Below are positions 9,001-15,000 of a DNA stretch of 64,000 nt, in pieces. The position numbers were made by a program. How positions within the stretch are numbered: position 1 is the stretch's first letter; every line of letters begins with the position of its first letter. The stretch covers positions 7,435 to 71,434 of the forward strand of contig CAMNSE010000006.1 of NCBI GenBank assembly GCA_946554525.1, written 5' to 3'. The stretch comes from an uncultured Mycoplasma sp. (GTDB lineage Bacteria > Bacillota_I > Bacilli_A > RF39 > UBA660).

Positions 9001-12000
9001 TTATAAAGACAAGAAAATGTGAAGATGGATTTCATTTATATAATGAAGAAAATCTACATTTATTCAAAGATAAATTAATATCTAGCAAATTAAAACATAA
9101 TAATAAAGAAATAAATGACGCTCCTATTGGGAGAATATATTCTCGACTTTATAAAAGAAGTATTTTAAAATTAATAAAGTTTAATTCGAGTGTTAATTTA
9201 AGTGAAGATACTTTATATATGATTGATTTAATGCAAGTTGTAAAACAAATAGGAATAGTTCCAAATATCTGGTATAACTATTATCAAAATGATTATTCTG
9301 TTCTTCATCAAAAGAACGATGTTAAAACGATTCGAGATATTAGTGTATTTATAGAAGAAATAATAAAAAGAATGAATAATGAGCGAAGTGAAGAAATAAA
9401 AAATGCATATTGTTTTCGGATTATAAAAGCAATATTTAATATAAGAGATTTATTAGAAGACAATTTAGAATATTATTATCAAATATATAATGAGTCAAAT
9501 AGAGTAATTTTTAAAAAGTTTAACCATCAGGATTATATCAATATTTCTTCAGAAGAAATAGAATTTATAAATAGTATTAAAGAACAGTAATTAACTATTT
9601 TTATATTATTATCTTTACATAAGAATTAAATAAAACAAAAGAAAATAAAAGCATATTTTTAGCTCACTCAAGATAGGCTTAAAATAATTAATATAAATAG
9701 TAAGCAGGTGAATATCATGGAAATAAACTTTTTGATAGATATTTTATTACAACAGAAACCTAGTGAAGCAATTAAAGAGAATGAAGAAACTATTTTTAGA
9801 ATTATTCCAGAATTAAAATTGTGTAAAGGGTTTAGCCAAAATAATAATTGGCATATTTATGATGTGTATGAGCATATTCTTCATGTTATAGATGGAGTAC
9901 CTAATAATATATTTTTAAGAATGGCATCTTTGTTTCATGATATTGGTAAGCCCTTAGTTTATGAAGAAGATGAAAACGGTATAGGCCATTTTTATGGTCA
10001 TTGGGAAAAATCAAAAGAAATATTTGATAAATTTGCAACTAAGCATAGAATAGATGATAGTACCAAAAGCATAATTTCTAATTTAATTTTATATCATGAT
10101 TTAAATATTGATAAAATAAGTGATGATGAATTAAAAAAATTGCTTAATATTTTTGGTAGAAATGGTATAATAATGTTGTTTCAATTAAAACGAAGTGATT
10201 TATTAGCTCAAAATGAACAATATCATTATATGTTAGAAGATTATGATAAACAAGAAGAAAGATTACTATCAAGACACAAAGTGGCTGAAGCAAATAAAGA
10301 AGGTAAAAAATCTAAAGTAATATTAGGAACAGGTAGTTACTATAGTGTAAAAAGTGGAAATACAGTTTCAATAACGGGAGATGGCGGCAATGCTTGGGGT
10401 TATTATGGCCCGGCATATAAAAAGCTTGCTCCAAGATTAATTACCTATACTCCTTATGCTGAAGCATATGAAAGACTTTTAAAAATAAAAGAAGATACTT
10501 TAAGGTTAAAAGAATATATTCGGTTAAGAAGGAAAATAGAAGATGAATATATTGCAAGTTATTATGAAACAAGATTAAAAAATTTAGATGTAGAAGAGTT
10601 ACTTTGCGCTTTAGAAAGTAAATTCGGTGATAATATAATTTTACTATGTCATGAACCGATTGATGAATTTTGCCATAGAAGATTAGTAGCTGATTTTATT
10701 GAACTTAAAACAGGAATGTATATTCCGGAAATAGCAGTAAGTAGCGACGGAATAGTAAGAAAGCTAAGCCCAATTAGATATAAAAATAGATTAAAACAAG
10801 TGATAAATAAAAGAAAGTGATAAAATGGGGACTCTATATAATGAATACCTAAATTTATTAATCGAAGGTGAAATGCCATCATTTTTAGAAAAATATCTAA
10901 CAGTTCCAAGTTTAGTTAGGCTAAAAAATGTAGGGTATTTCTGCGGAATGGACTATGCATCAAAAAACATATATAATTTTAAAGAAAAAATTTCCCGCTA
11001 CGATCATTCCTTAACAGTAGCCTTACTAATATGGAAGTTTACAAAAGATAAAAAAACAACACTAGCAGGTTTATTTCATGATATTGCTACCCCATGTTTT
11101 GCACATGTAATTGATTATATGAATAAAGACTATGAAACGCAGGAAAGTACAGAAAAATATACTGAAAAAATCATTAAAAGTGATGTAATTTTAGCAAAAT
11201 ATTTGAAAGAAGACAATATATATTCAGAAGACATAATTAACTTTAAAAAATATAGAAAAGAGGCGAAAAAATGAGCAATTTAGAAAACGAAAATAATTTA
11301 TTAATTTATAAAAATCAAGAAGGTAATATTATTGTTGATGCAATATATAAAGATGAAACATTATGGCTTTCACAAAAAGGAATGTCAAAAGTTTTTGACT
11401 GCAGTACTGATAATATTTCTCTACATTTAAAAAATATCTTTAGGAGTAGTGAACTCAATGAGAATTTAGTTACCGAGGAATCCTCGATAACTGCTTCAGA
11501 TGGTAAGAAATATAAAACAAAAATATACAATTTAGATGCTATAATTGCGGTCGGCTATAGAATAAATTCCAAGAAAGCAACAGAATTTAGAATATGGGCA
11601 ACAAAAATACTTAAGGAATATATGACTAAAGGATTTGCTTTAAATGATGAAAGATTTATCAAAGGGAATAAATATGACATGAAATATTTTGATGAATTAC
11701 TTGAAAGAATTAAAACAATCAGGGTAAGTGAAAGAATGTCTTATCAAAAAATTACTGACTTATTTATTGTAACATCAACTGATTATGATCCTAAGTCAGA
11801 GAGCGCTTATACTTTCTTCAAGATTGTTCAAAATAAACTCCATTATGCCATATCTGGACATACAGCAGCAGAATTAATATATAATCGTGCAAATTCAGAA
11901 AAAGAACATATGGGGCTTACAAATTGGAAGAATAGTCCTGATGGTTTAATATATAAATATGATGTATCTATTGCTAAAAATTATTTAACTGAAGAAGAAT

Positions 12001-15000
12001 TAAACAAATTAAATGATTTAACAAATATGTTTTTAGTATTTGCGGAAGATGAAGCCAAAGAAAGGCATATTATGACAATGCAAGATTGGATTGATGCAAC
12101 GGATGATTTATTAAAATTTAGAAGAAAAAGTGTTTTAAAACATTCAGGAAATATAAGTCATAAAGAAGCGGTAGAAAAAGCCGAAAATGAATATGAAAAG
12201 TATAGAATTATTCAAGATCAGAAATATATTTCATCTATGGATGAATTTTATAATAGGTATTTAACTGAAAATAGAAATAAGGAAGATTTATAATGAAAAT
12301 TCAAAAATTTAATAGTTTGATAAAAGAATTATCTATTTGTGGCAAATGTACTAATATGAAATGTAAAAATAAATCACTCATAAATATATATAAAGATTAT
12401 GATTTTTGTATCAATATTCCTTCAATTTGGACTGATTGGTTTAATAGATTAGAATCAGATATTATGATTATAGGTCAAGATTGGGGACCTTATAGAGATA
12501 TGAAAAACTTTCACGAGCTATTAAATAAAGATAAATCTAATTGGAAAGAATTGATAGAGTCAGAAAAAAGTGCCACTAAAAAAATGCTAGAAAATTTTAT
12601 TATTGAATCTTCTAATAATAAATACACTTTAGATGATATTTATATCACAAATGCGATAATGTGTGCAAGACAAGGAACCCATTATAGAGGAGATAATATT
12701 GACTTAAAGAAGTCTACACTAAATTGTAGTGAGTATCTCTTAAAACAAATTCAAATTGTTAAACCCAAAGTGATTTTAACTTTAGGATATTATCCTTTAT
12801 TCTCTTTATCAAAAATATTTGAATTCAATATTGAAAAAACATTAAAAGAGACAGTTTTAAATTCTCCTGAAATAGAAATAGGTAACTTGATAATAATACC
12901 ATTATATCATCCAGTTGCCCAGGTGAAAAAAGATGAACAATTAAAACAATATAAAAGAATATGGAAATATATAAATTTAAAAAAAAGTAAAAAAGAAGGT
13001 GTGAAAAATGAGTAAAAATAACGATAAAGGGGGCCAAAATACAACAATCAACTGGTATCCAGGACATATGGAAAAAGCCAAAAGATTAATGAAGAAGGAA
13101 TATAACAATATTGATTTAGTTTATGAACTAATAGATGCTCGTATTCCAAAATCTTCAAAGATAAAAAATATATATGATGTAATAGGTAACAAACCTAAAA
13201 TTTTAATTATGACTAAAAAAGATTTAACTGACTCTAAAAAAATTGAAGGATGGATTAAATATTATGAAAATTTAAACACCAAAGTAGTAGTTGCTGATTT
13301 AAATAATTCAAATGATATTACAAAAATAGTTAATTTATCACATGAAATGATGGAGTCTCTTCAAAGCAAAAGAATGGAAAAAGGCTTAAACAAAAAAGAA
13401 ATTAAAGTTTTAGTTGTGGGTATTCCAAATGTAGGTAAATCAACGCTAATTAATAAACTTGCTGGAAGAAAGGTAGCTAGTGTTGGTAATAAGCCGGGAG
13501 TAACAAAAGGGCTTACATGGCTTAAAACTGATCATGGAATTATGCTACTTGATACTCCAGGAATTCTTTGGCCAAAATTAGAAGATCCAGAAATAGCACT
13601 TAATTTAGCTTCATTTTTCTCTATTCGTACAGAAATTCTAGATGTCGATGAAGTTGCATGTCATATTTTAAATAAATTAAATAAACTATATCCCGAAAAA
13701 TTAAAAGAGCGCTATGGAATTGAAAAAAATTTAAGTGGGCTTGATTTTGAAGCGGTATATGATGCTATTGGAAGAAAAATAGGGGCGATTAAAAATGGTG
13801 AAGTAGACTACGAAAGGGTCAGTAATCGCATTATTAATGATATTAAAGATGAATATATAAAGGGGATTTTATTTGATGAAGTCTAAAGTAGATTTACTTA
13901 AATATGAACGCGAATTATATGACAAGAATATTACATTAATTGCAGGAGTAGATGAGGCAGGGCGTGGACCTTTATGTGGACCAGTTGTAGCTGCAGCGGT
14001 TATTCTTCCTAAAAATTATCATTTAGAAGGTTTAAACGATTCCAAACAATTAAGCGAAAAAAAAAGAGAAGCATTTTATGAAATTTTGAAAAAAGAAGCA
14101 CTTAGCATTGGAGTAGGAATTGTAAGTGCTAAAGAAATAGATGAAATAAATATTTTAGAAGCATCCCGTAAAGCAATGTATATTGCACTAGGTAATTTAG
14201 ATATTACACCAAAGTATATTTTAAGTGACGCTATGAAACTTGATGATATTAATATTCCCTATACATCTATTATTCATGGTGATGCACTTTCTTTATCTAT
14301 TGCTGCTGCAAGTGTGGTTGCCAAAGTAACAAGAGATCATATTATGATGGAGCTTGATCGCAAGCATCCTGAATATAATATCAAAAAACATAAAGGATAT
14401 CCTACAAAAGAACATTTAGAATTAATAGAAAAGTATGGCATCTTTGAAGAGTATCGCATGTCTTATAAACCAGTAAAAAAAATATTTGAGGAGTCAAAAA
14501 AATAAAAAGTCTTGCAATTTATATATAAGTTAGTTTAAAATGGTACTTGAGTAGTTTTCTGCTCGTATGCTAAGCTAGAATAAGTGGAAAGGAAATAATA
14601 ATGAGTAAATTAGTAATTGTAGAATCACCTGCAAAAAGTAAAACAATTGAAAAATATTTAGGTAGTGATTATAAAGTTGTATCAAGCAAAGGACACATTA
14701 GAGACCTTGCAACAACTGGAAAATATGGTCTTGGAATTGATATAGAAAATGATTTTACACCGAGCTATATTCCAATAAAAGGAAAAAATAAAGACATTGC
14801 ATCCCTAAAGAAAATGGCTAAAGAAGCCGATAAAGTAATACTTGCAACAGATCCAGACCGTGAAGGGGAAGCAATTTCATGGCATTTATATGATGTTTTA
14901 AAACCTAGTGAAGATTATGAACGGGTAGTATTTAATGAAATAACAAAAGATGTTGTAAAAGAAGCAATGAATCATCCAAGAAAAATAGATATGGATTTAG

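Follow-up and report, generated by a model that had tools for sequence, protein, structure and literature searches.

In streptococci, integrative and conjugative elements (ICEs) have been documented to insert within the 5' end of rbgA, and the encoded protein is kept intact (PMC4701971). Genes of the RhuM family, one of the kinds considered here, have mainly been described in type I restriction-modification (R-M) loci or pathogenicity islands, and comparative work on R-M loci has suggested that RhuM serves there as a toxin domain (PMC3710099). A RhuM-domain gene of type PDC-S05, a single gene from a cold-seep microbe, reduces plating of phages T7 and T5 on E. coli B ~1000-fold, and that of T4 ~10-fold (PMC12881386). 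Here, we analyse four genes directly upstream of rbgA in a 64,000-nucleotide stretch of DNA (the window) from an uncultured Mycoplasma sp. (assembly GCA_946554525.1, contig CAMNSE010000006.1, positions 7,435 to 71,434 of the forward strand). Positions below, unless another locus is named, are those of the window. The genes, all on the + strand, are g1 (9717-10820), which encodes an HD domain fused to a divergent DUF488-like domain; g2 (10825-11274), the 5' remnant of another HD gene; g3 (11271-12293), a RhuM gene; and g4 (12293-13015), which encodes a putative family-4-like [4Fe-4S] enzyme of the uracil-DNA glycosylase (UDG) superfamily. An earlier note, made from the sequence alone, had described them as an inserted, possibly defence-related island. 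We conclude that, in a clade of uncultured gut Bacilli with low GC content, the 5' end of rbgA has probably long been an insertion hot-spot, whose current cargo is this block, and that the block is made of three independent units: g1, g2, and g3 with g4.

The argument begins with a comparison between the window and related loci (denoted by L numbers). Across positions 7070-16625 of the window, the gene order is greA, rplS, lepB, GT2, g1, g2, g3, g4, rbgA, rnhB, and topA. In L011, L012, L014, L022, L023, L101, and L106, the pairs rplS-lepB and rbgA-rnhB are kept and the cargo between them differs. Briefly, this slot holds PGM, HD, and Bro-N genes in L011; DUF1287, an 863-aa protein, a full-length HD2, HD, DapB_N, and glyoxalase in L012; and HAD, TIR-WD40, HD-HD, NADAR, and others in L014. 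In L022, it contains GNAT, Exo_endo_phos, NUDIX, ASCH, DUF92, another NUDIX, another GNAT, RhuM, UDG-like, and a second UDG-like gene. The cargo is GATase, GNAT, DUF218, Metallophos, and UDG-like in L023; HD, Bro-N, ASCH, and RhuM in L101; and permease, SWIM, and RhuM in L106. A g1-type HD homolog occupies the same slot in L011, L012, L014, and L101, and is the most recurrent resident (5 of 9 slots). The slot thus varies in content as islands and cassettes do, and the block is not conserved in the lineage; the case that the earlier note had named as refuting its reading, housekeeping proteins in a universally conserved block, thus does not apply.

That note had taken lepB, the GT2 glycosyltransferase gene, and the block together as an insertion behind rplS. 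The GT2 gene (8628..9590, + strand; Pfam Glycos_transf_2, 1e-31) is indeed variable, as is the block. It follows lepB only in the same-species contigs L001-L005, where it is the first gene of variable cargo, and other relatives carry different genes there. However, lepB follows rplS in every related locus. Hence, lepB is part of the conserved frame. Variability among strains had also been suggested as a check. Cargo varies among relatives, but at the level of the species the arrangement is fixed: at least 10 metagenome contigs encode the exact g1 protein, with the same neighbours. In L014, the slot (5520-13653) encodes an 801-aa TIR-beta-propeller protein, an HD-HD tandem, His_Phos_1, AAA_18, and NADAR, a set with the flavour of NAD/ADP-ribose conflict.

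These distributions bear on whether g1 to g4 act together. It had been proposed that they form one system for sensing nucleic acid damage or modification, possibly in defence and under SOS control. The four co-oriented open reading frames (ORFs) were described correctly: g1 and g2 are separated by a 4-nt gap, and the overlaps are 4 nt for g2/g3, 1 nt for g3/g4, and 8 nt for g4/rbgA. All genes are on one strand, with near-zero spacing and no terminator between them. However, the string runs without gaps into rbgA and rnhB, which themselves overlap by 14 nt; the tight packing is therefore not specific to the four genes. All four encode nucleic-acid-related domains, and in some relatives genes of a conflict type are part of the cargo (TIR-WD40 and NADAR for L014, Bro-N for L011 and L101), yet the combination is found only in same-species contigs. 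Among the loci examined, no locus outside the window's own species places g1 or g2 homologs beside the RhuM-UDG pair. The four genes differ in distribution and history, and g2 is a remnant, which is at odds with a coherent module. In PADLOC-DB 2.0, no multi-gene system is matched; g3 alone matches a system, PDC-S05/S23, which is single-gene; the matches of g1 (PDC-M45C, Cas3 HD) are weak and isolated, and g2 and g4 have none. This agrees with the earlier statement that no named system fits.

The suggestion of SOS control did not hold. No LexA box (GAAC-N4-GTTC, with up to 1-2 mismatches) is present in 7000-15000, and no LexA (Cheo) box was found within 500 nt upstream of 13 RhuM genes. Note that a LexA site has been reported upstream of a gut-metagenome rhuM (PMC3998124). 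The link to SOS had been drawn by placing DinD in the RhuM family. DinD of E. coli belongs to the Bro-N proteins and is not related to g3 (BLASTP E = 24). A four-gene system is thus highly improbable. The proposed role in defence may survive for RhuM, since the family has experimental anti-phage activity (PDC-S05; PMC12881386), but not for the four genes as a system. For annotation, the lesson is that tight packing, and nucleic-acid domains near core genes, do not make a system.

The boundaries between units can be located in the window. The protein encoded by g2 (149 aa) scores 27.8 bits for HD (PF01966). Most of its 150 best representatives are 300-350 aa in length and are matched by g2 only over their first ~145 residues. 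The gene comprises 143 homologous codons and a 6-codon foreign tail, compared to a family norm of ~310-350 aa. The full-length HD2 copy in L012 (314 aa) is 82% identical to g2, and nucleotide homology between the two stops after codon 143, at nt 11253. In the alignment, g2 lacks the conserved P..CADR motif, which contains the last Asp of the HD signature, and so has no complete H...HD...D signature. The truncated remnant is probably inactive. Nucleotide homology of the RhuM unit, to the RhuM genes of L101 and L022, begins at 11253-11256. Hence, the point where homology ends for g2 is the point where it starts for RhuM. The RhuM unit (11253..12293, + strand) consists of an 18-nt leader, with a Shine-Dalgarno sequence, and then g3. 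We suggest that the 3' half of the HD gene would have gone when the RhuM unit joined at nt 11253. The insertion would be an old one, with its left end lost along with the 3' half of HD2.

Rightwards of this junction, the RhuM and UDG-like genes can move together. Between the window and L015, nucleotide identity is ~90% over 11331-13027 and then ~64% in rbgA, with the fall at ~13010-13030. Similarly, where residues are identical, codon identity reaches 0.87 in the UDG-like gene compared to 0.63 in topA. We conclude from this step, with identity of the pair above that of its flanks, that the RhuM-UDG pair was exchanged as a unit. In L035, L036, L039, and L103-105, the pair makes up a cassette of 1.96 kb, whose ends are inverted repeats of 15-22 nt. 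The left end is (AAYTGG)TATATACCGACTTTAGTTAAC and the right end is GTTAACTAAAGTTGGAATT(AACTGG). The latter reads AGGGAG-N8-ATG TCA AAT GAA GAA AAG TTA ACT AAA GTT GGA ATT AAC TGG, which comprises a ribosome-binding site and a start codon, followed by the codons for an RbgA-like N-terminus, and which runs into rbgA in L105. The sequence shared by L036 and L104 is exactly a cassette of 1978 nt (91% identity), set between unrelated neighbours. As far as the AACTG/G core, L104 matches L105 with 99% identity, and the two are unrelated after it; the sequences of L103, L104, and L105 diverge right after AATTAACTG/G.

Each of the two genes is also found without the other. In L112 (4001-5802), and also in L113 and L114, RhuM is followed by a 265-aa GNAT gene, via the same 1-nt TAATG overlap and between the same inverted-repeat ends. 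Since GNAT replaces the UDG-like gene here, the RhuM cassette has interchangeable second genes. RhuM is alone in L115-117, directly overlaps rbgA without a UDG-like gene in L101 and L106-108, and is a clean 1.27-kb presence/absence indel between L036 and L040. Conversely, the UDG-like gene precedes rbgA without RhuM in L016, L023-25, and L029. Hence, the association is recurrent but facultative. In our interpretation, the pair would be a two-gene cassette exchanged horizontally, with a right end that gives rbgA its ribosome-binding site, its start codon, and the ~15 codons at its beginning. This putative RhuM-UDG cassette is a new aspect of the locus. In L021 (195-873), decayed UDG-like and RhuM fragments lie just upstream of rbgA, and look like a pair that was pseudogenised in one lineage.

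The most interesting lead, cassette arrays with copied RbgA leaders, lies in the relatives and outside the window. Arrays of 1-2-gene cassettes are present in L036 (1085-6900) and L104 (2800-10550), with at least 6 and at least 8 junctions respectively, and also in L035, L039, L041, L103, L105, and L112-117. Each junction has a ribosome-binding site, an ATG, and ~13-16 codons that copy the RbgA N-terminus, ending AAYTGG (or CAGTGG/AACTGC). The copied leaders are of the types MNENKTNINW, MEDKKEKLPSTRIQW, and MSNEEKLTKVGINW, and each is followed by a spacer of 60-170 nt, of which there are a few recurring kinds. A large serine recombinase gene is found inside arrays (L104, 1117-2196; L112, 7089-8300). 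An attC-like palindrome at every junction was considered and rejected: apart from the RhuM cassette, only one other has clear cognate inverted repeats, and we therefore claim no attC-like rule. Viral contigs contained no match to reconstructed attP and attL strings.

A similar leader probably marks the right-hand boundary of the pair. In L022 (7714-8600), a decayed rbgA leader, with an in-frame TGA and ending AATTGG, is located behind the UDG-like gene. A second, divergent UDG-like gene (7864-8580; weak match to PF03167) separates this decayed leader from the real rbgA. Because the decayed leader trails the UDG-like gene, the first ~15 codons of rbgA in the window belong to the UDG unit. The first 16 codons of the window rbgA (13008..13055, + strand) end at an AACTGG (Asn-Trp) core, at 13050-13055, which is likely the right-hand recombination point. 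The ribosome-binding site and start codon of rbgA are covered by the sequence for the 12-residue C-terminal tail of g4.

Taken further, the slot may be the repeat-less, fixed end-state of an undescribed cassette-capture system in uncultured gut Bacilli. We put this forward tentatively. Cassettes of 1-2 genes would insert at the conserved Asn-Trp (AAYTGG) codons in the 5' part of rbgA, and the RhuM and Fe-S UDG pair of the window would be one such cassette, possibly a functional anti-phage pair. With each cassette would come a new ribosome-binding site, start codon, and RbgA N-terminus, in place of the old ones. Leaders from earlier insertions would stay as junction scars, so that arrays build up, apparently driven by the cassette-borne large serine recombinase. 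The circular form of a cassette would carry the junction GTTAACTAAAGTTGGAATTAACTGG-TATATACCGACTTTAGTTAAC. Streptococcal ICEs resemble the relatives' arrays in that they are sited at the rbgA 5' end and preserve RbgA. However, the ICEs are large and use tyrosine integrases, whereas the relatives' units are cassettes of 0.7-2 kb and the only recombinase seen is the large serine recombinase. Integron cassette arrays are alike in another way, since the relatives stack small co-oriented cassettes before rbgA, with a copy of the RbgA N-terminus at each junction. They differ in that the relatives' arrays have neither IntI nor attC, and the window itself shows none of the array features. If confirmed, the arrays would be an integron-like gene-capture device in Firmicutes, with a different recombinase and an essential gene as anchor.

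Several observations weigh against the block being cargo of an insertion hot-spot. The junction repeats and inverted repeats of the relatives are absent from the window, where other repeats are only AT-rich noise. No recombinase is encoded among the slot ORFs, and the composition of the window is not anomalous. Hence, we infer the insertion history here from the relatives. In addition, RhuM is 83-89% identical, at the amino acid level, between genomes (window compared to L101, L106, and L022) for which ribosomal protein L19 is 61-65%, and RbgA 49-52%, identical. For a defence gene, it is unusual to surpass L19 in conservation between the same genomes. Finally, the RhuM and UDG-like genes adjoin in both orders, with a 1-nt overlap in the window and in L022, and this could reflect functional pairing instead of shared cargo.

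Some of these points favour an alternative in which nothing at the locus is mobile or defence-related, and the four genes encode vertically inherited housekeeping or house-cleaning enzymes in the rbgA operon. Consistent with this, composition and codon usage are native. The GC content of g1-g4 is 0.24-0.28, with 0.14-0.21 at third codon positions (GC3), the same as for rplS, rbgA, and topA; a compositional island was rejected, since GC, GC3, and skew of the block equal those of its flanks. Furthermore, in most genome pairs, synonymous sites of the RhuM and UDG-like genes come close to those of core genes in their degree of saturation. The same arrangement in 10 same-species metagenome contigs fits vertical descent too, but presence and absence vary among related genomes. 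Likewise, the neighbours of the UDG-like gene are repair and nucleotide-metabolism genes, yet a cassette with defined ends sits between different neighbours in L036, L104, L105, and L112. The sharp step in identity at the UDG/rbgA junction, compared to L015, and the RhuM indel between L036 and L040 also argue against purely vertical inheritance, as does, for a wholly domestic role, the demonstrated anti-phage activity of the RhuM family (PMC12881386). We consider this alternative unlikely.

The pairing of RhuM with a second gene raises a different alternative: that RhuM and the gene following it, here the Fe-S UDG-like gene, are a functional two-component module. The glycosylase would sense, or itself create, lesions in phage DNA that contains uracil or is modified, and RhuM would act on the product; otherwise, the partner would modulate a toxic RhuM. 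RhuM adjoins the UDG-like gene in ~12 of ~55 loci (UDG-like genes of the group with at least 65% identity). It is upstream in arrangements of the window type, and downstream in L026-28, whose RhuM has only 50% identity. However, most RhuM-first adjacencies come from one rbgA-linked arrangement and only ~two independent juxtapositions are apparent. The inverted-repeat cassette always has RhuM with one tightly coupled partner (UDG-like or, in L112-114, GNAT), but RhuM is a single-gene indel beside the UDG-like gene in L036 compared to L040, and each gene often lacks the other. UDG-superfamily defence glycosylases do exist (Brig1 and Brig2). The AlphaFold2 model of RhuM, which is poor (predicted local distance difference test score, pLDDT, 62), has a marginal best Foldseek match to the DNA-damage protein DdrC (E 4.6e-3). 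Conversely, the validated PDC-S05 was a single gene (PMC12881386), and in many genomes the UDG-like gene is highly conserved beside ruvB, rnhB-topA, NUDIX, UMPH-1, or tmk. A dedicated two-component module is possible but, on balance, doubtful.

We now return to the individual cargo of the hot-spot, beginning with RhuM. The g3 product (340 aa) matches Virulence_RhuM (PF13310) end to end, with 330 bits (gathering score 33.7; 1e-98). The PADLOC PDC-S05 model PDLC04851 matches residues 5-334 of 340 with 435 bits (3.9e-131); several PDC-S05 models match over the full length, and g3 also matches PDC-S23 (single-gene). There are more than 8000 RhuM homologs and the best 120 of these are 84-91% identical. 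The ratio of non-synonymous to synonymous substitution (dN/dS) is ~0.08. Identical codons at identical residues have a frequency of 0.67-0.70 for RhuM, compared to ~0.5-0.65 for core genes, and third-base identity at four-fold sites is 0.43-0.57, compared to ~0.25-0.56. Since synonymous sites of RhuM are scrambled nearly to the level of core genes, the similarity of RhuM proteins mostly reflects strong purifying selection, and not recent spread. Recent horizontal transfer, as a general cause of 83-91% identity, is ruled out for most genome pairs by these near-saturated sites; the one exception is the comparison of the window with L015, for which we accept it.

Plasmid members of the RhuM family, in Bacteroides, Streptococcus, and Ligilactobacillus, are the same size as g3 and 44-49% identical. 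Compared to RhuM genes of R-M loci, g3 has no neighbouring R-M genes; unlike described RhuM, its type is joined tightly to either rbgA or a UDG-like gene and is under very strong purifying selection. By analogy with the assayed gene, RhuM would most likely act alone, as an anti-phage protein of the PDC-S05 type. A very conserved subfamily, repeatedly welded to rbgA, is a tractable entry to the mechanism of this newly validated defence family.

The g4 product belongs to the UDG superfamily (PF03167, 47.5 bits compared to a cut-off of 24.3; 2.5e-12). Scores are under the cut-offs for family 4 (TIGR00758, 36.4 compared to 125.3; NF040953, 46.6 compared to 250). Even so, the only PDB sequence matches, and hence the only solved relatives, are family-4 UDGs: those of Sulfolobus tokodaii (4zbx) and Thermus (UDGA, 1ui0), and Thermotoga TM0511 (1vk2/1l9g). 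Shared features are the C-terminal Fe-S Cys pair (xxxC-ARQ/RPP, xC-S-x-L), an N-terminal CxxC, and the HP of motif B. However, motif A is GE(A/G)PG in family 4 and GQDWGPY in g4, in which ~40 additional residues also separate motif A from the core. The motif A of g4 instead resembles that of family-1 UDGs, which is GQDPY. The g4 type forms its own tight family, with at least 703 members; of the 703 homologs found, the best 120 are at least 71% identical. In an alignment of 18 homologs, motif A (GQDWGPY, 61-67) and motif B (YHPVAQ, 205-210) are invariant, as are C16, C19, C124, C145, D63, and H206. C124 and C145 align with Cys residues of 4zbx/1l9g. What had been noted as an extra Cys cluster (C16, C19, C124, C145) thus appears to be the ordinary four-Cys [4Fe-4S] set of family-4-type UDGs. 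We conclude that the g4 type is a putative, uncharacterised Fe-S UDG family with a GQD motif, and is new.

Most likely, judging from these motifs, g4 would flip out and excise uracil, or a related aberrant pyrimidine, via Asp63 (GQD) and His206 (HPV). We lean towards a repair glycosylase, because catalytic-looking residues and Fe-S ligands are invariant and the neighbours are genes for repair or nucleotide hygiene. Restriction of phage DNA, as by Brig1 and Brig2, may be envisaged since g4 rides in a cassette with RhuM, although we think it rather unlikely. Like g4, the Brig proteins have a UDG-superfamily fold and are cargo of mobile or defence loci, and g4 shares its cassette with a gene of a defence family. 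Unlike them, g4 has PDB sequence similarity to family-4 UDGs alone, is far more conserved, and is often found among repair genes. In gut Bacilli with reduced genomes, this widespread family may act as the principal uracil glycosylase, or it may be a restriction enzyme of the Brig kind.

The UDG-like gene is right before rbgA in the window, L015, L016, L020, L022-25, L029, and L105, and after ruvB(-queH) in L017, L018, and L026-28. In the window, ruvB (49572-50681) has no UDG-like gene behind it. Hence, there are at least two alternative conserved positions in the clade. The gene is also found among genes for NUDIX, ASCH, pyrimidine-5'-nucleotidase (UMPH-1), methyltransferase, and thymidylate kinase (tmk). 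The commonest neighbour of more distant UDG-like genes (L048-L052, L061, L063, L066, L068, and L070; cluster c0, for example L050:7355-8113) encodes a protein of ~250 aa. This has an EndoIII-like 'APDTHV' motif and no Pfam match, and is possibly a second glycosylase. In a phage collection, the sole match was a SPbeta-type hypothetical protein, 27% identical to g4; in PHROGs, g2, g3, and g4 have no matches.

Finally, we consider g1 (367 aa). The domain assignments made previously were essentially right, with HD, RhuM, and UDG all recognised by Pfam, but in g1 DUF488 is only a below-threshold match. The N-terminal half (residues 1-190; 9717..10286, + strand) scores 27.1 bits for PF01966, compared to a cut-off of 22. 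It has the HD signature, with EHILH52, FHD73-75, YHD126-128, and D161 (RSDLL motif from residue 159). Positions 217-403 of the CCA enzyme model TIGR02692 match this half (E 3.4e-9). Residues 6-185 are 36-49% identical to the HD region of proteins with a PolyA_pol, PF12627, HD, and PF13735 arrangement. By sequence, CCA-adding enzymes (class II nucleotidyltransferases) have an HD domain like that of g1. They differ in carrying a nucleotidyltransferase head, which g1 lacks, and has the DUF488-like domain in its place. The HD half is also 50-78% identical to stand-alone HD proteins of ~200 aa, and to HD domains with ASCH, Macro, HAD, GNAT, or another HD as fusion partner.

The C-terminal half of g1 (residues 199-367; 10311..10820, + strand) is below the cut-offs for DUF488 (PF04343, 17.9 compared to 22.2 bits) and DUF488-N3a (PF22751, 20.4 compared to 27 bits). 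Only one homolog, P0034, is above the gathering score (DUF488, 22.7 compared to 22.2). The weak matches to both models, in g1 and four homologs, cover the last ~60 model positions, and PADLOC PDC-M45C weakly matches this half of g1 (3.6e-5). Invariant motifs are GDGGNAW and LLCHE...FCHRR. The second of these is shared with DUF488, at its C-terminus, whereas the DUF488 models leave the N-terminal half of the g1 domain (GTGSY...GDGGNAW) uncovered. DUF488 itself is said to fall within a RapZ-C-DUF488-DUF4326 clade of the rhodanese-phosphatase superfamily. The AlphaFold2 model is alpha/beta (pLDDT 80, predicted template modelling score 0.80), and neither Foldseek nor sequence profiles gave a PDB relative of this half. 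Elsewhere, the domain is stand-alone, with ~200-240 aa (P0027, P0033, P0035), or has other partners (P0018, with HAD; P0088). Fusion of the domain to HD was encountered in this species, in a cluster with 96% identity, and in one shortened variant only. We conclude, from these sequence relationships, that in g1 the HD phosphohydrolase of CCA-enzyme type that recurs in the slot has been joined to a divergent DUF488-like domain, and that this fusion is lineage-restricted; the architecture is new.

The HD domain of E. coli Cca reportedly has 2',3'-cyclic phosphodiesterase, 2'-nucleotidase, and phosphatase activities. Phosphoester hydrolysis by g1 is predicted from homology to this domain and from the fusion partners of its relatives (ASCH, Macro, HAD). 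The enzyme would hydrolyse 2',3'-cyclic, 2'- or 3'-phosphates on nucleotides, NAD/ADP-ribose derivatives, or RNA ends, and its two domains would act on successive steps.

The remaining features concern expression and surroundings. An AGGTG Shine-Dalgarno sequence is positioned 7 nt upstream of the g1 ATG at 9717, and an alternative GTG is at 9708. The only sizeable spacer is that of 126 nt between GT2 and g1. This spacer holds no convincing site, and matches in the promoter and terminator scan were no commoner than in shuffled sequence; between g1 and rnhB, no terminator-like site was found. The conserved right flank, rbgA (13008-13886, + strand; Pfam MMR_HSR1) and rnhB (13873-14505, + strand; Pfam RNase_HII), is probably co-transcribed with the block, and g1-g4 would be read through together with these genes. 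The window as a whole has a GC content of ~27%, with nearly all genes on the + strand. The sole match in an Rfam scan is a distant tRNA. Lastly, a 134-aa ORF without a Pfam match, at 5439-5843, is located between two larger ORFs upstream of greA.

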